From: Escherichia phage Envy
Reading direction: 5' to 3' (one strand)
Length of the DNA: 45,206 bases
Sequence record: NC_031081.1
The position numbers were made by a program, and so were the translations under genes. A model generated the notes under the pieces. The model was given only the letters and a program-made list of their open reading frames with translations. It had not been told where the DNA came from and did not search any database. Every line of letters begins with the position of its first letter. The stretch's first letter is position 1. Of this stretch, positions 1,061 through 28,194 are shown one piece after another.

Positions 1061-1231
1061 ATGCGGATTAAAGCCAGCGAAGTAAAAGTCGGAATGAAAG
1101 TATGGTCTAAGCTACTGGGGGAATATTTCACAGTTGCCGAGATTCGCAACAACGGTGAAGAGATCGCCCTGTCCGACGGCATCTTCTCCATGATCGGCAG
1201 CGCTGACGCCGTAGTGAGGATTAAGCAATGA
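1061..1231 (+). CDS. small hypothetical protein (about 56 aa), translationally coupled to DNA polymerase
   Basis: ORF below track size cutoff; AGGA RBS; stop overlaps polymerase ATG (ATGA). Confidence 0.35.
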   Translation: MRIKASEVKVGMKVWSKLLGEYFTVAEIRNNGEEIALSDGIFSMIGSADAVVRIKQ

Positions 1232-3519
1232 AAGACTTCGAACGCCTGTTTCTCGATACCGAGACATTTAGCGGGGTGGACCTGAAGAAAGTAGGTGCGT
1301 ACGCCTACGCGGAGCACCCAACCACCGAGATTATGATCTGCACCTACGCCATAGACGAGGGCCGCGTGCAGACATGGGATTGCACCGAGTCCCCTAAAAT
1401 GCCGCGTGAACTTCGCAAGGCGCTCCGCCGGGTATCCCGCAAGAAAGCAAAAATCGTCATGGCTAACGGCCTCCTGTTTGACCGCCTGGTTATCCGTGAG
1501 AAGTGGGGTATTGACCTACCAGTTAGCCAGATCGAAGACACCATGATTATGGCCTTCCGTCACGCATTACCCGGCAGCCTTGATATGCAATGCCAGGTAC
1601 TGGGCGTAGATGCTGAACATGCGAAGGATAAAGCAGGCAAGGCGCTGATTAAGCGATTCTGTAAGCCAACGCCGAAGACTTACAAGGTCCGCCGCTATAC
1701 CCGCGAGACTCACCCGGAAGAGTGGGCCAAATTCCTCAAGTATGCGAAATACGACATCATCGCAATGCGTGAAGTGTACTGGCGTATCCCGGATTGGGGT
1801 AATACTCCGAAGGAAGACCAGATACTGGCAATTGACCAGTTGATCAATGACCGCGGATTCTACGTGGATACCAAACTGGCCTACGCCGCTATTAAAGCCG
1901 TGGAAGCGCACAAAGAAGAACTGAAAGAAGAGGCTATGGAGAAGTTTGGCGGTAAGCTAACCGGCAACGACTTCCTGCCATTGCTGCGCGATATTGCTCC
2001 GGCTTTCACTATCCATAATGCGCAGAAATCCACGCTGCACGACCTTCTTGCGGATCCTGACTTCCCGGATGAGGGCAAAGTGCTGATTGAAATGCGCCTC
2101 GGTGCGTCATCAACGGCATCGACCAAATACAATCCGCTCGTTAATGGCCTATCCGCCGATGGTCGCCGCCGTGGGTGTCTTCAGTATGGTGGTGCAAAGC
2201 GCACGCTGCGCTGGGCAGGTAAAGGTTTCCAACCTCAAAACCTGGCACGCGGAGAGTATAGCGACGATCACGAAGGGAAGATTAAGCGCCGCGAAGGTGA
2301 GAGCGACGTCGCTTTTTGGGTCCGGTCGCACATGCTCACCAACGGCATCAACTCCCTGTTACGCGGTACCGCGCACTGGGCGTATGACATATCTAAGCTG
2401 ACCGCCTCGACCGTCCGCGGGTGCATCATTCCGGCGAAGGGCAAGAAGTTTGTCGTCGCGGACTACTCCAACGTTGAAGGGCGTGGCCTTGCCTGGATCG
2501 CTGGCGAGAAAACCGCGCTAATGGTGTTTAAGGCCGGACGCGATATCTATTGCGAGACTGCCGGTAAGATGTTCGGCCTTGACCCGGATTACATCAAAGC
2601 CAACCGCAAAGACTTGCGCCAGATCGGAAAGGCGTGTGAATTGGGACTGGGCTATGGTGGCGGCGTTGCGGCGTTCTTGCAGTTCGCTAAAAACCTGGGC
2701 CTCGACCTTTACACTATGGCGGACGTGATGAAAGGCACGTTCCCGGATCACATTTGGGCGGCGGCGAAACGCGGCTATGAGTACGCCCGCATTAACGAAG
2801 CGAAGCGCCCGCCGAAGCCTGGTAAGAAAGACGAGCGCCCAACTTACATACTGCCGAAAAACGTATGGCTGACGTGCGACGCGATCAAACGTATGTGGCG
2901 TGAGGCTCACCCGAAGACGGTAGCCTTTTGGGCCGAGCTTGAGGACGCGGTGTTGTGTGCAATCCGCAATCCGGGCAAAGCATACTGGGCTGGCGCGAAC
3001 GTTCGCCCGGACGGAAGGAAAGCGCTCAAGATTGTGCGCACGAAGGCGAAGCACGACCCAACCTTCGACGAGGAGCGCGACGACCCGGACGCCGCGGGGT
3101 GGTGGTTGAAAATTGAGTTGCCGTCGGGGCGCATCATGAGCTACCCGGGCATCGCGCTGTCTGTCACGACCGAGATCGACGAAGATACTGGCAAGAAACG
3201 CACCAGCACCCGCATTAAATACCAGGGCGAGAACCAGACGACGCGCCAGTGGGGATTCCAGTACACCTACGGCGGCAAACTGACGGAGAACATCGTACAG
3301 GCGTTGTGCCGCGATATTCTCGCATGGTCCATGCCTGGCGTTGAAGCTGCGGGCTATGAAATCGTCCTGTCAGTACACGACGAATTGATCACCGAAGTGC
3401 CAGACACTGACGACTACACGACCGAGGAGCTTTGCGCGCTGATGTGCGACCTGCCAATTTGGGCGAAAGGCTTCCCACTTGCCGCAGAGGGCGATTGCAT
3501 GTATCGCTACCGCAAGTAG
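1228..3519 (+). CDS. family A DNA polymerase with N-terminal DnaQ-like 3'-5' exonuclease
   Basis: 763 aa; FLDTETFSG exo motif; RQIGKACELGLGYGGG (motif B-like) and LSVHDELITEV (motif C-like). Confidence 0.9.
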   Translation: MKDFERLFLDTETFSGVDLKKVGAYAYAEHPTTEIMICTYAIDEGRVQTWDCTESPKMPRELRKALRRVSRKKAKIVMANGLLFDRLVIREKWGIDLPVSQIEDTMIMAFRHALPGSLDMQCQVLGVDAEHAKDKAGKALIKRFCKPTPKTYKVRRYTRETHPEEWAKFLKYAKYDIIAMREVYWRIPDWGNTPKEDQILAIDQLINDRGFYVDTKLAYAAIKAVEAHKEELKEEAMEKFGGKLTGNDFLPLLRDIAPAFTIHNAQKSTLHDLLADPDFPDEGKVLIEMRLGASSTASTKYNPLVNGLSADGRRRGCLQYGGAKRTLRWAGKGFQPQNLARGEYSDDHEGKIKRREGESDVAFWVRSHMLTNGINSLLRGTAHWAYDISKLTASTVRGCIIPAKGKKFVVADYSNVEGRGLAWIAGEKTALMVFKAGRDIYCETAGKMFGLDPDYIKANRKDLRQIGKACELGLGYGGGVAAFLQFAKNLGLDLYTMADVMKGTFPDHIWAAAKRGYEYARINEAKRPPKPGKKDERPTYILPKNVWLTCDAIKRMWREAHPKTVAFWAELEDAVLCAIRNPGKAYWAGANVRPDGRKALKIVRTKAKHDPTFDEERDDPDAAGWWLKIELPSGRIMSYPGIALSVTTEIDEDTGKKRTSTRIKYQGENQTTRQWGFQYTYGGKLTENIVQALCRDILAWSMPGVEAAGYEIVLSVHDELITEVPDTDDYTTEELCALMCDLPIWAKGFPLAAEGDCMYRYRK

Positions 3520-3585
3520 CGGAAATGTTGCTTTTAGCGGAAACGTTGGGCATTATTGTCTGGCGTTTTCTTTTTCGAGGTGTAT

Positions 3586-4188
3586 ATGAAACATTGTGGG
3601 CGTTGTAATACGGGTAAAGATGAGTCCGCTTTCAACAAGGGCCAGTCGTGGTGCGCCAAATGCATGGCGGCATATAAGAAAGAGAGACGGGATAAGGAAA
3701 GAGGCGCGCCGCCGAGAGAAGTATGGCGAGAGTACACCGGGGAGATCGTAACATGTCGTACGTGCGGTGAGCGCAAGCCGCTCACGCCGGAAAACTTCCG
3801 GCCCGGAAGCCAAGCAAACGGGTCACATATTCGTAAAGAATGCCGATCGTGCGCTAATAAGTCACGCCGTGAGTACAACCACCGGACACCAGAGATCCGC
3901 GCTTACTATAAACTCTTTCAGTACCGTAAGGCAGACGAAAGGAAGGGGCTAAACACCGACCTTACTACAGAGGACGTGCTGCGCCTTACTTCTCAGCCGT
4001 GCGCATACTGCGGATTCACCGGCGACAATGGCGCGGACCGACTCGACAACGCAGTAGGCCATACGAAAGATAACTGCGTGCCGTGCTGCGTAGAGTGCAA
4101 CATAGCCCGCGGGGATCGGTTTACCCCGGACGAAATGAAGAAGTTTATCGGACCTGCCATCGCTGCCGTAAGGAAAAGCCGACAATGA
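3586..4188 (+). CDS. HNH endonuclease with two N-terminal zinc-ribbon-like modules
   Basis: CAYCGF...DNAVGHTKDNCVPCCVECNIARGD HNH-like region; two CxxC...CxxC modules; GAGG RBS before ATG 3586. Confidence 0.7.
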   Translation: MKHCGRCNTGKDESAFNKGQSWCAKCMAAYKKERRDKERGAPPREVWREYTGEIVTCRTCGERKPLTPENFRPGSQANGSHIRKECRSCANKSRREYNHRTPEIRAYYKLFQYRKADERKGLNTDLTTEDVLRLTSQPCAYCGFTGDNGADRLDNAVGHTKDNCVPCCVECNIARGDRFTPDEMKKFIGPAIAAVRKSRQ

Positions 4189-4463
4189 CACCAGAAGGCA
4201 AGGTGCAGCGTCACCTTATGAAACGGGTTAAAGAGGTTGGCGGATTCTGCCGAAAACTGGCATGGGAGGGGCGCGCAGGTGCGCCCGACCTGATTATTAT
4301 CATCAACGGCATAATAGTGTTCGTCGAAGTGAAGCGCCCAGGCGGAAAACCGAAGCCGCACCAGGTACGTGAACATGAGCGAATGGCCCGCCGCGGTGCT
4401 GACGTTCGCGTTATCGACAACATATCCGACTGCGATTTATTGGTTGCTGAATTGGTCGCATAG
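4185..4463 (+). CDS. VRR-NUC domain nuclease
   Basis: GAPDLIIIINGIIVFVEVKRPGGKPKPHQ matches VRR-NUC pattern; ATGA overlap with HNH stop. Confidence 0.7.
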   Translation: MTPEGKVQRHLMKRVKEVGGFCRKLAWEGRAGAPDLIIIINGIIVFVEVKRPGGKPKPHQVREHERMARRGADVRVIDNISDCDLLVAELVA

Positions 4464-4503
4464 CGGTATAGTGTGCCGGTTAGCCATATCGAGGATTTTA
4501 GAG

Positions 4504-4677
4504 ATGATTGAAGAAAAACGTTGTAGTAATTGCGGCTGTGTAAAGCCGCTATCCCAGTTCCACAAATACACCGGTAAGACTGCGCGCAGTCCAGACGGGT
4601 ATCGGGCAGAGTGCAAATCGTGCCGCAATAAGAAAGAGCGCGAACGGCAGCGCCGCTACCGTGCAGAACAAAAATAA
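4504..4677 (+). CDS. small zinc-ribbon protein (57 aa), paralog of the HNH N-terminal modules
   Basis: CSNCGCV...FHKYTGK...CKSCRNKKERERQRRY; internal ATG of track ORF 4369..4677 with upstream AGGA. Confidence 0.45.
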   Translation: MIEEKRCSNCGCVKPLSQFHKYTGKTARSPDGYRAECKSCRNKKERERQRRYRAEQK

Positions 4678-4684
4678 TTAATAC

Positions 4685-4707
4685 GGCGGGCTTGTCCCGC
4701 CATTTTT
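4685..4707 (+). terminator. rho-independent terminator
   Basis: GGCGGG-cttgt-CCCGCC hairpin then ATTTTTGG. Confidence 0.6.
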
Positions 4708-4720
4708 GGGAGACATGACG

Positions 4721-4939
4721 ATGAAAGAACATTACCGGCTCACCAAGCTGGGCGAATGTAAACCGGGCGATCGCGTATGGTTTATCGCAGGCATGAATGA
4801 TCCGCTGCCGTTGACGGTGTGCTGGCAAAAATTTAAGAGCTTCCGGGCTACCGGTGTGCACATCGGACACGCCACCAACTACGACGCCACAAAAAGGAAC
4901 TGGAACAGTGAAACAGAAGTCTGGAAAAAGGCGGAATAA
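4721..4939 (+). CDS. hypothetical protein (about 72 aa)
   Basis: GGGAGA RBS upstream; ATG at 4715 or 4721. Confidence 0.45.
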   Translation: MKEHYRLTKLGECKPGDRVWFIAGMNDPLPLTVCWQKFKSFRATGVHIGHATNYDATKRNWNSETEVWKKAE

Positions 4940-4943
4940 AGAT

Positions 4944-6368
4944 ATGGCACGTTTCCGACGTCGCGAATATCAGAAGTTGATAACCGCGTTCATCCTCAAG
5001 CATAAGCGCTGCAATATTTGGGCGACAATGGGGTCGGGTAAAACCGGCGCGACCATGTGGGCGCTGAATAAAATGTTCCAGACTGGCGTCCTGTCCCATC
5101 ATGAGGACCGCGTACTGGTGCTGGCCCCGCTGCGTGTTGCGTCGGGTACATGGCCACCGGAACAGGAGAAATGGCGATTCTCATCCCTGCTGGTCGTAGA
5201 CGGCACCGGGCCGGAGAAGGACCGTATTGCGGCGCTTGAGAGCGACGCTAACGTGGTTTGTGTTAACTACGATGTGGTTGAGTGGCTGGTCGACTATTAC
5301 GGCGATGCGTGGCCCTTTACGGTCGTTGTTGCCGATGAATCGACTAAGCTGAAAGGCTATCGTAGCAAGCAGGGGAGCAAGCGCGCCCGCGCACTGGCAG
5401 CGATTGCACATAAACACGTCAAGCGCTGGATTAACCTTACCGGCACACCAGCGCCAAACGGGCTAAAAGACTTATGGGGTCAGACGTGGTTTGTCGACGG
5501 TGGCGAACGCCTCGGCAGTAGCTATAAGGCATTTACCGACCGCTGGTTCATTAGCAAGCCTGTTAAGCCTGGCAGCTTCACTATGCAGCACGCTCCGCTA
5601 AAGAACTCCGAGAAAGAGATACAACAACGTCTGTCAGATGTATCCCTCACCGTTGACGCGGCTGAATACTTCGGGTGCGACAAGCCAATCTATACGCCGG
5701 TTGTTGTGGACCTGCCGAAGAAAGCGCGCAAGATTTATGACCAGTTTGAAAGCGAGCTATTTGCAGAACTGGAAAGCGGAACAGTGGAAGCGGCGAACGC
5801 GGCGTCGAAGACAATTAAGTGCCTTCAGCTTGCATCCGGCGCTGTGTATAAGGTGGACGAAGACGGCGAACGGACCGACGAGTGGGTGAAGATTCACGAC
5901 GCGAAGCTGGACGCGCTGGAAAGTATTGTGGAGGAGTTGAACGGAGCGCCGTTGCTCGTTGCGTATCAGTATAAGCATGACCTGGCACGTCTTAAGAAGA
6001 AATTTCCGCACGGCGTTGCGTTGGGTAAAGGTAAGCAGGGCAATAAGGATATGGAAGCATGGAACAGGGGCGAGATCCCCATCATGTTTGCACACCCGGC
6101 ATCGGCGGGCCACGGCCTTAACTTGCAGGACGGCGGTCATCACCTGGCAATCTTCTCCGATACCTGGAACTTTGAGCACTTTTCGCAGATCGTTGAGCGT
6201 ATCGGGCCGGTTCGCCAGATGCAGGCCGGGCACCCTCGACCGGTATTCGTCTACATTATCCAGGCGCGCGGGACACTGGACGAACTGGTCGCGGAGCGTC
6301 GCGACAGTAAGCGAGACATTCAGGACGATTTAATGGAATACATGAAAGCTAAAAAGGCGCGCAAATGA
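4944..6368 (+). CDS. SNF2/DEAD-like superfamily 2 helicase
   Basis: Walker A MGSGKTG, DExx-like VVADES, NLTGTP; internal ATG at 4944 with RBS. Confidence 0.8.
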   Translation: MARFRRREYQKLITAFILKHKRCNIWATMGSGKTGATMWALNKMFQTGVLSHHEDRVLVLAPLRVASGTWPPEQEKWRFSSLLVVDGTGPEKDRIAALESDANVVCVNYDVVEWLVDYYGDAWPFTVVVADESTKLKGYRSKQGSKRARALAAIAHKHVKRWINLTGTPAPNGLKDLWGQTWFVDGGERLGSSYKAFTDRWFISKPVKPGSFTMQHAPLKNSEKEIQQRLSDVSLTVDAAEYFGCDKPIYTPVVVDLPKKARKIYDQFESELFAELESGTVEAANAASKTIKCLQLASGAVYKVDEDGERTDEWVKIHDAKLDALESIVEELNGAPLLVAYQYKHDLARLKKKFPHGVALGKGKQGNKDMEAWNRGEIPIMFAHPASAGHGLNLQDGGHHLAIFSDTWNFEHFSQIVERIGPVRQMQAGHPRPVFVYIIQARGTLDELVAERRDSKRDIQDDLMEYMKAKKARK

Positions 6369-10566: not shown

Positions 10567-12981
10567 TTTCTTCAACGCCGCGATCTCGGCCTTCAAATCC
10601 TCCACCTGCTTATTGAGATATTGAACACACCCCATCAAGTCCATTACGATCGGGTTAACGTCGATGGATGGGCGGTCCGTCATCTTCTCCCCGATCTTGT
10701 TGCCGTCTTCGTCGAGAATATCCTCGATCGGGAACTCGTGGTGCTTAACGTACTGCGGCGCAATTAACTCCGCTTCTTCGGCGATAATACCGAAGCGCTG
10801 GCGGGCCTGCTCATCATCCTTATACACGAAGTTAACAAGGCGCTGGCTGTTAATGCGGTCCATAGCTTCGCTTGCGTCCGCATCGGCAATATCTTTCTTA
10901 TACTCGCGCCCTGATGTGCCTTGCAGCGCGATAGTCCCCGATGCGGTAGTCGGGAAGTTAAGCATAATTTCGCCGGTACGGTTCCCATCCTTACGTCGCA
11001 TAAACAGGCGAAAATGTCGAGTGCCGCTCTTGTCTAGTGCCGGTTCGAAGAACGTCCTACCGCCTACGACGTCGTTCGGCACGGTTTCGCCTACGGTGTA
11101 GTACGGTTCGAATGCAAATTGCAGGTAAGACCCGCGGCTTACTGCCAGGCTACCAACGACATCTGACCCTGAACTGTTCACCGTAAACTTGCCCGGCAAG
11201 GTCATCTCGCCTTTGGTGTTAAAGTCGATGCCTGAACTCTGCGCCGTCTCCAGGTTAGTGATCGCCAGGCGGGCGTAAGTCTCACCGTCGATATTCGCAC
11301 GGACGCGCAGCTTTGCTTCCGAGTGTAAAGAAGTGCCAACACGATATTCAGACACAATGCTTCCGCCGTCTGCCGTAGTGCCCGCTGGCGGTTTAGTGGC
11401 GTCGCCGTTGATTACCGACCACGACGTATTAGCGGCGGCGAATCCGCCTGACGCTCGAATAACCCACACGCCCATGAAGTTATTGGGGCGCAACTCCGAT
11501 ACGGTCCGGCCATAGATCGCGTTGACCTTCGAGGCGTCCATGTTAATGATGCCGTAGGAGACTGCGCCGTTACCAACAGGTAGGTTGCCTGGCGACCGAT
11601 ATTGCGAAGCCGCTCCACCAGCCCCGTGGAACGCGCCACTTTCATGGTTGATAATACTTGCGGCCCCGCCGCCGTGTAATTCGACGCGGCCTGTGATGTT
11701 AGGTGCTCCTGATTCGTAGATATACCCATCGTTGCCACTTTGCCCGCCGTCGCCCCTGCCGAACAAGCCGAATATGGACCCAGGCTGAACGCCATTACGG
11801 TCCGGCACTCGGAAGGTAGTTGTGCCGTCACCCGTAGAATACTTTCCGCGCTGATTTGGGTTTGCCAGCCAGGTCTCGTCACTAATTGGCGACAGCATTT
11901 GCGCATACGCCCAAAGCTCAGGCCAATCAGCTCGGTTTAACAATTGACCGTCGGACACCACTTCGTAAGGTTGAATATACGCGCGGCTGTCCCGTAAATG
12001 GAAATCACCTACGCCATAGTTCATGACGCCGTTCATTGTAGGGCCGACAGTGCCGGTGTTGATCAGATTCTGCACCCAGCGCTTTGTCGTGGCGTCGTAG
12101 TCACCAACAGGGTCGCCAGCCAGTGGTGTTGCCCCGTCCGGGCGAACGTTAAGCCAGGCTTGCGGTTTGTCGGTGAGTCCCGCCAGGTTGCCTGATTTTG
12201 TTAGCAAGTTATCCGCGTTAACGCTTTGCGCCCACTCCTCGGCCTGATCGCGGAATCCCTGCGCGGCTGTGCTGGCAGCTTGCGCGTCCGTCTTCGCGGT
12301 GTTGGCCTCGTCCCTCATAACGCCGGTGTCAGTCTTGATCTGGTTCGTCTGGTCTTTGATGGCCTGCGTATCAGTCTTAATCTGGTCCGTCTGCGTCTTG
12401 ATGGTATTGGTGGCGTCGTGGATAGCCTGCGTATCCGCCTTAATCTGGTCAGTCTGCGTCTTGATTGTATTGGTATCGTTTTTGAAGCCTTCGGCCTCAT
12501 CCCGAAATCCTTGCGCTGCGGATTTCGATGCTTCGGCTTGCGCTGCGAGGTCGCGCATCTCAACGGGGTCTACGTTCTTAAGCAATTCCGACAGGTATCC
12601 CCATGACATTCCCTGCATGACTTGCCCGTTAGGTAGCGTCACGGTGATTTCTTCAGCGTCGCCGAAGATTGCACGCCAGTTGTTTTCATCTGCGATCATC
12701 AATCGCAACGCTTTCTGTGCCTGTACGGTAACGCCCATCGTTGCCAGCGACATGGTATCGCGCTTAACACCATCCCAAGCAAGGCCGGTTGCCGTTGGGC
12801 CGTCGAACGGCAACACTAGCGTAAGCGCCGTGTTACTTTCGATTGATGCGATCGCCACTGTGTAAGGCACTTGTCCTACCACCAGCGTTAAGAAGTCGCC
12901 AGCTTTAAACGCGGTAAACGTTGTGCCGACTCCTACTACCGCCGTGCTATTGTTCGTTACGGATAGCGTACCCGCTGCCAT
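10564..12981 (-). CDS. tail fiber protein with C-terminal intramolecular chaperone (peptidase S74-like)
   Basis: about 805 aa from ATG at 12981 (GAGGA RBS); repeat-rich coiled coil, Gly-rich domain, C-terminal region typical of self-cleaving chaperone domains. Confidence 0.75.
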   Translation of the reverse strand: MAAGTLSVTNNSTAVVGVGTTFTAFKAGDFLTLVVGQVPYTVAIASIESNTALTLVLPFDGPTATGLAWDGVKRDTMSLATMGVTVQAQKALRLMIADENNWRAIFGDAEEITVTLPNGQVMQGMSWGYLSELLKNVDPVEMRDLAAQAEASKSAAQGFRDEAEGFKNDTNTIKTQTDQIKADTQAIHDATNTIKTQTDQIKTDTQAIKDQTNQIKTDTGVMRDEANTAKTDAQAASTAAQGFRDQAEEWAQSVNADNLLTKSGNLAGLTDKPQAWLNVRPDGATPLAGDPVGDYDATTKRWVQNLINTGTVGPTMNGVMNYGVGDFHLRDSRAYIQPYEVVSDGQLLNRADWPELWAYAQMLSPISDETWLANPNQRGKYSTGDGTTTFRVPDRNGVQPGSIFGLFGRGDGGQSGNDGYIYESGAPNITGRVELHGGGAASIINHESGAFHGAGGAASQYRSPGNLPVGNGAVSYGIINMDASKVNAIYGRTVSELRPNNFMGVWVIRASGGFAAANTSWSVINGDATKPPAGTTADGGSIVSEYRVGTSLHSEAKLRVRANIDGETYARLAITNLETAQSSGIDFNTKGEMTLPGKFTVNSSGSDVVGSLAVSRGSYLQFAFEPYYTVGETVPNDVVGGRTFFEPALDKSGTRHFRLFMRRKDGNRTGEIMLNFPTTASGTIALQGTSGREYKKDIADADASEAMDRINSQRLVNFVYKDDEQARQRFGIIAEEAELIAPQYVKHHEFPIEDILDEDGNKIGEKMTDRPSIDVNPIVMDLMGCVQYLNKQVEDLKAEIAALKK
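12290..12500. repeat. about 33-bp periodic direct repeats inside tail fiber gene (encode TQTDQIKTDTQAIKD-type heptad repeats)
   Basis: repeated GTCTTGATCTGGT/CGTCTGCGTCTTGAT units. Confidence 0.55.
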
Positions 12982-26534: not shown

Positions 26535-27035
26535 TCACCCCCTGTATACGTCGAAATTGCCTGCGGCGTTGCCGCCTGAATCAACCCAGTGGCCTAACAA
26601 GCCATCCCACCACGGGAACGACACCCCGCTACCAATCGACGCCGGGTCATATTCCATCGTGATCGGGCCGACCGTTTCGCGAATAGTCTCTTTACCATCG
26701 CCGACCGGAGAAATATCGATCTCGTCCGCCACCAACATCGCCAACCGGTAAACAGCTTGCTCAACGGCAACGGGGGTTGATGCGAAGTCTACGATCTGCC
26801 CGGCAGGCACTACCGCCACAACTTCAGTGAGCGTGTCCCGCACCGGCTTACCGTCTGACGGGTAATTAATGCGGGGCCATGCGTCGATTCCGGTCTGGTC
26901 TGCTTGTTCGCCGATCCAGTTGATGCCGTTAAGGAAGTCGTTAACGGTGGTAAGGTGTCGCGTTGCATCGCCTAGCGTAATTTCAACGCCTCGCGCAGCG
27001 GCATAATCGACAAAGGTTTGCGGGTCGCCATACAT
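26535..27035 (-). CDS. putative head-tail connector protein
   Basis: about 167 aa from internal ATG with AGGAG RBS; downstream of capsid terminator. Confidence 0.45.
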   Translation of the reverse strand: MYGDPQTFVDYAAARGVEITLGDATRHLTTVNDFLNGINWIGEQADQTGIDAWPRINYPSDGKPVRDTLTEVVAVVPAGQIVDFASTPVAVEQAVYRLAMLVADEIDISPVGDGKETIRETVGPITMEYDPASIGSGVSFPWWDGLLGHWVDSGGNAAGNFDVYRG

Positions 27036-27093: not shown

Positions 27094-28194
27094 TTAAGAC
27101 GCGGTAGTCGCCGTCAGCGTAACCAGTACGCCAGCGGTTTCCTTGATGTGTCGGGTAGGCACTGCCTGTGCGGCCTGGGTCTTACGACGACCTTTAGTAT
27201 CGCCATCACCCACAGCGCCAACGTCCTGCACGGTTGCCGGTGCGTTGTCTACCTGGCCCTGGTCCAGTTCCCAGTTAGCGGAAGTGGTAATATCGTCCAG
27301 TTTGAACGAGCGCACACCTTCGATCGGGGTACGAGCGGACGCCTTCAGACGGTAGCCTTTAACGGCCACGTTGAAGTCGAACTCGCCCTGCCACCAGCGT
27401 TCGATGTTCTCGTTACCGCCTTTCTCCTGCGCCAGCATATCGAGGCCGTTGGTGGTAACTGCAACCGCGCCAGGAACCAGACCCAGCATGTTACCAGCGC
27501 CCATAGCATCGGCAGCGGCATCGGAGATAATGAATCGACGGCCCAGGCCATCACCCATTACCTGTAGATCGCCAATTGCGAATACCTGTTCAGCAGAAGG
27601 GAGTGCCTGGTACGCAATGAAGTTTGCCCAGGTAACGCCGTCCATAAACCAGGACTTAATCAAAGACGCCTGATCGCCGAACTTAGAAGCCGCCAGCGGG
27701 AAGTCTGCCAGGGTCGGGAAGGTACGACCGCCAACGCCGTCAACGCGCGCCGGTTGGGTGTATTTTGCCGCTGCGTTGCTTTCGATCGCCGCTTTACTTG
27801 CGCCGATACCAGCTTTCAGGTAGTGCAGCATAATCGCTTGAGTAGCCTGTGCCGCAATCTCAGCCGCAACGCTGTTAACGTTGGTTTCGATCTTAGCCAT
27901 CATAGCCTTAGTGATTGCTACCGGACCCACTTTTGCGGAAAGGTTAACCGAGTTGGTCAGCATACGCGCCAGAACTTTCGCGGTTGCCGGAGTGCCGACA
28001 GGGGCGTAGGCGTTACGGTCGGTAACGAGGTTGGCGATCAAGCCTACGGACATTTTCTCAATAACATCCTTCAGCACTTCACCAGTACCGAGAACAACAG
28101 CGCCATTGGCGGCGGCGTTGAAAACGTTCAGGTTGTCGGGGATCATTTGCGTAACCGCGGTAACGAGTTTACGCTGGAACACTTTTAAAGACAT
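27094..28194 (-). CDS. major capsid protein
   Basis: 366 aa; follows scaffold gene; AAAGGA RBS; strong terminator downstream. Confidence 0.75.
   Translation of the reverse strand: MSLKVFQRKLVTAVTQMIPDNLNVFNAAANGAVVLGTGEVLKDVIEKMSVGLIANLVTDRNAYAPVGTPATAKVLARMLTNSVNLSAKVGPVAITKAMMAKIETNVNSVAAEIAAQATQAIMLHYLKAGIGASKAAIESNAAAKYTQPARVDGVGGRTFPTLADFPLAASKFGDQASLIKSWFMDGVTWANFIAYQALPSAEQVFAIGDLQVMGDGLGRRFIISDAAADAMGAGNMLGLVPGAVAVTTNGLDMLAQEKGGNENIERWWQGEFDFNVAVKGYRLKASARTPIEGVRSFKLDDITTSANWELDQGQVDNAPATVQDVGAVGDGDTKGRRKTQAAQAVPTRHIKETAGVLVTLTATTAS

Follow-up and report, generated by a model that had tools for sequence, protein, structure and literature searches.

A zinc-finger module of a very common kind occurs three times in the replication operon of Escherichia phage Sloth, twice in the N-terminal half of a 200-aa nuclease and once as a free-standing 57-aa protein. 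We consider it likely that this one module serves two separately evolving genes, a mobile gene for a PacI-like nuclease and a gene for a conserved small protein that acts alone. The shared motif is, on sequence evidence, that of a promiscuous domain and not the mark of a local duplication-fission event.

Gene organization of the locus

The window, i.e. the whole stretch of 45,206 nucleotides that was analyzed, is the genome of phage Sloth (KX534339.1, genus Dhillonvirus) in rotated form; its position 3000 corresponds to position 10643 of the record. A long replication operon contains the whole 1228-6368 region, and methyltransferase genes lie downstream (Table 1). The gene coordinates of the original prediction were exact. 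Its placement of a VRR-NUC nuclease between the 200-aa and the 57-aa proteins is borne out by matches to Pfam VRR_NUC (PF08774; 24.3 bits against a gathering cut-off of 23.8, E = 3.5e-5) and phrog_93 (E = 8e-31). VRR-NUC belongs to the core of the replication module and is kept in all related loci examined except those of the L011/L012/L019 type.

Table 1. Features of the PolA-SNF2 region (positions in the window)
Feature	Position	Strand	Remarks
Family A DNA polymerase (PolA)	1228-3519		
Accessory cassette between PolA stop and VRR-NUC start	3519..4181		variable among Dhillonviruses
Imperfect hairpin followed by TTTTT	3539..3570	+	pattern scan; between PolA and nuclease gene
200-aa nuclease-like gene	3586-4188	+	ATG start
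Module 1 of 200-aa protein, residues about 1-41	3586..3705	+	Cys pairs C4/C7 and C23/C26, putative Zn ligands
Module 2 of 200-aa protein, residues 51-103 (or 56-109)	3736..3894	+	Cys pairs C57/C60 and C86/C89, putative Zn ligands
Predicted PacI-like His-Me finger (beta-beta-alpha-metal) nuclease domain, residues about 104-200	3895..4188	+	
VRR-NUC, 92 aa	4185-4463	+	ATGA overlap with TGA of the 200-aa gene
Small gene, 57 aa	4504-4677	+	
Module 3, the 57-aa protein	4504..4677	+	Cys pairs C7/C10 and C37/C40
Terminator-like GC hairpin, GGCGGG-CTTGT-CCCGCC then ATTTTT	4685..4706	+	pattern scan; directly 3' of the small gene
74-aa protein	4715-4939		
SNF2-type helicase	4944-6368		

Two hairpins flank the genes under study. 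The upstream one spans the TTG (3556) given in GenBank as the start codon of the nuclease gene; in the Gluttony RefSeq records the gene starts at the ATG equivalent to 3586. The hairpin that follows the small gene folds with -12 kcal/mol (z = -1.6), but 12 of 200 dinucleotide shuffles fold equally well and it is thus not distinguishable from them. Its stem is unchanged in five Dhillonviruses, and the adjoining coding DNA shows pS values of up to 0.5.

Three copies of one zinc-finger module

In all three modules an aromatic residue lies between two CxxC pairs, and the second pair opens a basic helix. The spacing is C-x2-C-x8-F-x6-C-x2-C-MAAYKKERR in module 1, C-x2-C-x10-F-x14-C-x2-C-ANKSRRE in module 2, and C-x2-C-x8-F-x17-C-x2-C-RNKKERER in module 3. 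The spacers had been described as about 12 residues each; the actual values are 8/6, 10/14 and 8/17. A deletion in the loop has shortened module 1, in which the basic helix AAYKKERRDKER follows. The Bas72 counterpart retains the full length and reaches 36.9 bits with the module HMM.

This HMM was built from 451 module instances in 146 unrelated metagenomic proteins, the relatives of the Sloth proteins being left out. It scores 55.8 bits for module 3, 25.9 for module 2 and 18.8 for module 1. Chance resemblance is ruled out by shuffles with fixed Cys positions, none of which (0 of 2000 for module 1, 0 of 2000 for module 2) reached the observed score. A six-frame scan gave window-wide E-values of 6e-17, 1.3e-5 and 6e-5 for modules 3, 2 and 1, respectively, and no fourth copy below E = 0.01 anywhere in the window. 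The predicted distribution, two copies in the nuclease and one in the 57-aa protein, thus holds with exactly three copies.

Pairwise comparison, again with Cys positions fixed, gives a graded picture. Modules 2 and 3 are clearly similar (z = 5.8, 0 of 5000 shuffles), modules 1 and 3 marginally so (z = 2.8, 65 of 5000), and the similarity of modules 1 and 2 is not significant. The profile tests decide the matter for all three. phrog_2340 matches residues 1-50 of the 200-aa protein over those positions of its profile that the small protein also matches.

AlphaFold models of the 200-aa and 57-aa proteins have pLDDT values of 81 and 78. In the AF2 model, module 1 has a helix at 24-38 that begins at the second CxxC; module 2 has strands at 54-56, 63-65, 71-73 and 82-86, followed by a helix at 87-100 (pLDDT about 80). 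Helices begin at C23/C26 and C86/C89 in the 200-aa protein and at C37/C40 in the small protein. The predicted fold is a beta-hairpin knuckle with the second CxxC at the helix start, i.e. a treble-clef-like finger with a basic helix. Their profile matches show the three modules to be homologous, each a copy of a zinc-finger module that is very common.

A widespread building block of nucleases

How common the module is became visible by exhaustive profile search, which was needed here; a word-indexed protein search returned only 3 to 10 relatives per query. When the module profile was searched against 1.84 billion representative proteins, it matched 13,954 protein clusters at E ≤ 1e-3 and, at the stricter E ≤ 1e-10, 722. 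Proteins of 200-700 aa that carry 3-10 modules in tandem head the list; across the family the number of copies per protein is 2-10. The consensus of 102 of the top matches consists of four repeats of KxCxxCGxxKPxxEFxKxxxxxDGxxxxCKxC plus a basic stretch, then a classical CxxC…DH…CxxCN HNH motif. Among the same 102 proteins, Pfam assigns Stc1 to 75 (at E ≤ 1e-3), DUF6510 to 41, HNH to 18, HNH_5 to 15 and Endonuclease_7 to 8; HNH_4 also occurs. A Foldseek search against BFVD led to HNH endonucleases, from phages as well as from giant viruses, that contain the module. Ten module-bearing proteins that were looked up by cluster are all metagenomic. The module is a widespread building block of viral and bacterial proteins, found mostly as tandem arrays in front of HNH/EndoVII nuclease domains.

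Existing family models cover the module in part. Its profile overlaps Pfam Stc1 (PF12898) and DUF6510 (PF20120), and partly PHROGs 5558, 1035, 2255, 2340 and 2633. Stc1 itself, from eukaryotes, is a protein-binding tandem finger of LIM-like type. One module spans about positions 50-84 of the 84-position Stc1 profile. Neither Sloth protein matches PF12898 at E ≤ 1. Relatives fall on both sides of its gathering score of 24.8 bits: an ortholog of the small protein, P0003 (19.8 bits), and the Bas72 nuclease (16.0) are below, and P0015 (34.9) and P0082 (31.4) are above. A profile search of the PDB found no solved structure of the module; the best E-values were 0.8-1.6, including Stc1 (2luy) at E = 1.5.

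A PacI-like nuclease in an optional cassette

The 200-aa protein belongs to phrog_1035, and searches of Pfam and NCBIfam gave nothing usable. The protein is predicted to consist of two modules followed by a PacI-like His-Me finger nuclease domain. As a single sequence it has no match in the PDB; PacI was found only by family profile and fold search. An hmmsearch with the family alignment (A1) identified PacI (3ldy) with E = 4e-10 and 43 bits, and in the predicted structure the beta-beta-alpha-metal fold with its flanking Cys4 sites superposes on PacI. The domain has two Cys pairs, C139xxC142 and C168xxC171, with 'DRLDN' in place of the usual 'DH', as well as His159 and N172. Its motif G-x-D-R-L-D-N-x-x-G-[H/Y]…N…C-x-x-C-N-x-x-R-G aligns with GVDRSD…EGY…N…CFICNRIK of PacI, such that 'DRLD' is matched to 'DRSD' and the G-H159 of Sloth stands opposite 'EGY'. 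Position 159, that of the catalytic Tyr in PacI, is His in Sloth and Tyr in four homologs. In the A1 alignment D154 is invariant, and D151, N163 and N172 are conserved to at least 90%.

PacI-like nucleases constitute group 20 of the His-Me finger classification of Jablonska et al. 2017 (PMC5714182), a group that has no Pfam model. PacI is the known example of a His-Me finger without the canonical His; it uses an omega-loop Tyr, as general base or nucleophile, and an Asp and an Asn hold one metal ion (PMC5714182, PMC4081073). The label 'HNH endonuclease' given by the original prediction is right but must be qualified as PacI-like, because the motif aligns with PacI and the canonical His is absent. 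In the proposed mechanism the two modules with their basic helices would bind DNA and position the catalytic domain, which, like PacI, would use an omega-loop Tyr/His instead of the canonical His.

The gene is present in a minority of related phages. Of 156 matching phage records, 24 cover the 2.5-kb region over its full length, and a tblastn search finds the nuclease at ≥ 90% identity in about 26 Dhillonvirus records. Homology between Sloth and HK578 runs up to 3518, at the PolA stop, and resumes at 4182, 3 nt before the VRR-NUC start, which places the breakpoints at 3519 and 4181. The slot between PolA and VRR-NUC holds a 110-aa HExxH protein in HK578 and a 63-aa ORF in SSL-2009a, and is empty in CEC_Kaz_2018. 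Phage bob carries a chimera of nuclease residues 1-154 and the tail of an SSL-2009a-type ORF, a scar of recombination. The HExxH protein of HK578 was also sought elsewhere in Sloth, which has no homolog of it. Homologs of the nuclease with one module are found at other loci: the one in Murrayvirus sortsyn is flanked by an unnamed upstream gene and the portal gene, the one in Drexlerviridae ESCO41 by minor tail genes.

The nuclease gene is evidently an optional, mobile cassette in the PolA/VRR-NUC slot. Its sporadic presence, precise intergenic site and homologs in unrelated phage operons are as expected for a free-standing homing endonuclease gene, and we infer that it behaves like one.

The conserved small protein

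The 57-aa protein is basic (pI 9.85, 17 K+R). Its zinc-knuckle hairpin is followed by the loop FHKYTGKTARSPDGYRA and by a 19-residue basic helix that begins with the second CxxC. A GAGG lies 9 nt upstream of its ATG. The protein matches phrog_5558 with E = 6.5e-17, and also the N-termini of several PHROGs named 'HNH endonuclease' or 'endonuclease VII', including phrog_1035. It is present in all Dhillonvirus records compared, about 156, where the protein is 90-100% identical although the DNA has diverged. In ten pairs pN/pS is 0.01-0.17; between Sloth and HK578, for example, there are 17 synonymous changes and 1 non-synonymous change. The gene is evidently under strong purifying selection.

The same position, between VRR-NUC and the SNF2 helicase, is occupied by the small gene in eiAU-183 (host Edwardsiella), where it is present but unannotated, in Otaku (Serratia), in VLCpiS11a (Klebsiella) and in one metagenomic phage; the groups represented include Eiauvirus and Guernseyvirinae. 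Across these genera the protein is 54-70% identical to that of Sloth, tracking PolA, VRR-NUC and SNF2 (46-81%). In the sequenced replication regions of the Eiauvirus, Guernseyvirinae and metagenomic loci the module HMM finds the small protein only, with no second copy. In a second type of replication module (DUF2800-PolA-…-Nmad5) the small gene directly follows PolA, and the protein is 57-65% identical whereas PolA is only 26-28% identical. Horizontal transfer, or a target in the host or among nucleic acids that is itself conserved, accounts for this difference better than co-evolution with the phage replication proteins does. Bas72 has its replication module in common with Sloth (PolA 65% identical) and carries a two-module PacI-like nuclease in the slot, but the module HMM finds no free module anywhere in its genome. 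The small gene is thus dispensable for replication as such, which weakens the case for a core-replication role.

None of the three names under which databases list the small gene ('Lar-like restriction alleviation protein', 'kilA anti-repressor', 'HNH endonuclease') is supported. Our literature search found no study of the gene and no Dhillonvirus transcriptome that covers it. The sole Dhillonvirus proteomics paper found reports four phage proteins detected in infected cells and does not mention the small gene.

Relationship of the two genes and role of the small protein

The original prediction held that the small gene arose by duplication and fission of the nuclease N-terminus and that the free module could compete with the nuclease or modulate its DNA targeting; it would then be a trans-acting specificity or regulatory subunit. 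The two genes are 316 bp apart and have the module in common. There is also a precedent in the zinc-ribbon proteins ('Group 4') that adjoin phage HNH nicking endonucleases, for which Xu and Gupta 2013 proposed a function as regulator or 'mini-specificity subunit', untested there (PMC3592412). From the module 2 side the small protein ranks 7th of 451 matches, which we attribute to its closeness to the family consensus. From the opposite side, an HMM of the small-protein orthologs puts Sloth module 2 at rank 580 of 775 instances (10.3 bits), a rank biased to high scores for foreign modules because the instance set was chosen with a small-protein-dominated profile; for module 1 this HMM gives no alignment. 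The small protein is 36-39% identical to module 2 and forms an orthologous group of its own. Tandem duplication is normal in this family, and modules 1 and 2 of Bas72 are near-best matches of each other, so that this half of the proposal stands; the identities and ranks speak against the fission. The steady co-occurrence and adjacency that would mark partners of the Xu and Gupta type are not seen either, since each gene occurs alone and VRR-NUC intervenes. About 156 Dhillonvirus records contain the small gene and about 26 the nuclease. In other genera the small gene keeps its position, and the replication regions sequenced there hold no further module. Bas72 carries the nuclease but lacks the small gene, and nuclease homologs reside at packaging or tail loci. 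Neither gene needs the other, because each occurs without it (Dhillonvirus, Eiauvirus, Guernseyvirinae, Bas72). With distributions that are independent and a small protein in its own orthologous group, fission and coupling are unsupported, and we regard them as very improbable.

On the reading of two separately evolving genes, which we favor, the small protein would have a role of its own. It is probably a nucleic-acid binder that would act through its zinc finger and basic helix; less certainly, it may serve in replication or recombination, or in their regulation, and would be neither a subunit of the neighboring nuclease nor its antagonist. A more specific idea, which we put forward only tentatively, is that it is an unrecognized factor of PolA-type replication modules whose invariant loop (F/Y-H-K-Y-T-G-x-T-A-R-S-P-D-G) binds a slowly evolving host protein or nucleic-acid structure. 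If true, the small protein, always just downstream of PolA and absent in Bas72, would be a portable accessory, e.g. an anti-defense or host-takeover factor or a helper of replication initiation, and no structural component of the replisome. A host-directed accessory, engaged in restriction alleviation, anti-defense or host takeover, with the invariant loop binding a conserved host protein, appears unlikely. The PHROG 5558 label 'Lar-like restriction alleviation protein', the presence of several DNA methyltransferases in the operon, the dispensability of the gene in Bas72, and an identity between module types that far exceeds that of PolA, as for a slowly evolving host target, are in its favor. 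However, Pfam Lar_restr_allev (PF14354) gives no match to the Sloth protein at E ≤ 1 and only 13.9 bits for P0003, where 28.6 are required, the PHROG label amounts to a guess at the level of the family, and the usual context of the module is in the DNA-binding arms of nucleases. Slightly less probable still is a transcription regulator, i.e. a zinc-finger activator or anti-sigma-like protein comparable to P2 Ogr or B. subtilis CsfB. The preferred reading remains that of a conserved small protein acting independently of the mobile nuclease.

Implications

A motif shared by neighboring genes need not imply local duplication or functional coupling. For annotation, the product listed as 'hypothetical protein' or 'endonuclease VII' in about 26 Dhillonvirus records can now be described as a predicted PacI-like nuclease that carries two zinc-finger arms. 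Enzymes of the PacI type that bear modular DNA-binding repeats could be of use in enzyme engineering, since tandem arrays can reach 10 modules and so hint at a recognition length that might be programmed. The PolA/VRR-NUC junction is a site of cassette swapping in a phage genus used for therapy and for defense-system screens. The small gene is well conserved and easily testable.

Comparison with known systems

The features described here are of known kinds: a Stc1-like, HNH-associated zinc-finger repeat, a PacI-like His-Me finger, and a homing-endonuclease-like cassette. The Sloth modules share consensus, spacing and basic helix with the tandem 'KxCxxCGxxKPxxxF...DG...CKxC' repeats associated with HNH and EndoVII domains. 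They differ from Stc1/DUF6510-type repeats in that the Sloth proteins remain below the Pfam thresholds and module 1 is shortened. PacI (PDB 3ldy/3m7k) is a bacterial type IIP restriction enzyme of 142 aa without N-terminal zinc-finger repeats, whereas the Sloth nuclease has His159 for Tyr, two extra modules, and a sporadic phage gene. Patchy presence among nearly identical genomes and precise intergenic insertion are features that this gene shares with free-standing homing endonuclease genes of phages; its catalytic domain, however, is PacI-like and not of the classical HNH types of phage homing endonucleases. The small protein resembles Lar/RalR (PF14354) in its small size and two CxxC pairs, but the Pfam match is not significant. 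The Group 4 proteins of Xu and Gupta offer the same picture as Sloth of a small Cys-rich protein near an HNH nuclease with zinc-ribbon sites. Their HNH genes, however, adjoin cos sites or terminase genes and have other ribbon motifs, whereas the Sloth genes are split by VRR-NUC and distributed independently of each other.

A cassette-swap site between PolA and VRR-NUC

The junction between PolA and the VRR-NUC gene is a cassette-swap site in the Dhillonviruses. The slot holds the PacI-like nuclease in Sloth, an HExxH protein in HK578 and a short ORF in SSL-2009a, and it is empty in CEC_Kaz_2018 (see table). An HExxH protein also occupies the equivalent slot in the Guernseyvirinae; Sloth lacks this protein altogether. 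A chimeric ORF is found in Escherichia phage bob (P0005, NC_073072.1 213-674), in which nuclease residues 1-154 are followed by the C-terminal portion of a 63-aa ORF of the SSL-2009a type. It looks like a recombination scar within the swap slot.

Bas72 and Bas73 carry a 231-aa version of the nuclease that is 50% identical to that of Sloth and whose first module is full. They lack the small zinc-finger gene, and a different ORF of 63 aa follows VRR-NUC.

Coordinates of the features in Sloth (window) and in the compared loci
Phage or locus	Feature	Position
Sloth	Slot content: PacI-like nuclease	3519-4181
Sloth	Terminator-like hairpin in the PolA-nuclease gap, spanning TTG 3556	3539-3570
Sloth	GC hairpin and T-run, immediately 3' of the small gene	4685-4706
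HK578 (L006)	Slot content: 110-aa HExxH protein	2848-3178
SSL-2009a (L008)	Slot content: 63-aa ORF	1994-2185
CEC_Kaz_2018 (L009)	Slot with nothing inside	about 2182
Bas72 (L010)		27404-28129; 26689-26880
L011	Small gene, second phage type	4001-4192
L012	Small gene, second phage type	
L019	Small gene, second phage type	3186-3356

Nuclease start and hairpins

The nuclease starts at TTG 3556 in GenBank KX534339 and at the ATG equivalent to 3586 in RefSeq Gluttony; the ATG is the better start. The stem of the hairpin following the small gene is unchanged in 5 Dhillonviruses, with pS of the neighboring coding DNA reaching 0.5. This hairpin with its T-run is likely a terminator or attenuator within the replication operon.

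The small gene and its module in other contexts

In Edwardsiella phage eiAU-183 (L003), an unannotated small zinc-finger gene (about 4004-4165) overlaps a classical HNH endonuclease gene (4113-4637; motif CAYCG…DH…CNLFK) at its 5' end; this second gene is the one that the record annotates as "DNA repair ATPase". The small protein is encoded immediately 3' of PolA in a second phage type (DUF2800-PolA-…-MT-A70/Nmad5). With 57-65% identity to the Sloth protein, against only 26-28% for PolA, it has either been transferred horizontally or been held under unusually strong constraint.

Some records (MG065648.1, OQ221563.1 and GQ502199.1) bear unexpected host labels. In this region, the records labeled Campylobacter phage A144 and Sodalis phage SO-1 share 93-95% identity with E. 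coli Dhillonviruses, and the small protein of Acinetobacter phage NJ01 is identical. The host labels may be wrong, or contamination may lie behind them.

Up to 10 tandem copies of the module occur among the metagenomic proteins P0019-P0165, as in P0020 (699 aa) and P0035 (2046 aa), and many of these proteins terminate in HNH or EndoVII domains. None of them is named in any source.

Possible relation to Srd-type proteins

The PacI-like domain (residues 104-185, window 3895-4185) gave weak matches to the PHROGs named "Srd anti-sigma factor" and "decoy of host sigma70" (E = 0.0023 and 0.016, respectively). In Morganella phage MP1, tblastn matched it to a gene labeled "Srd anti-sigma factor" (E = 5e-5). 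A PacI-like His-Me finger may be present in the T4 Srd-like proteins.
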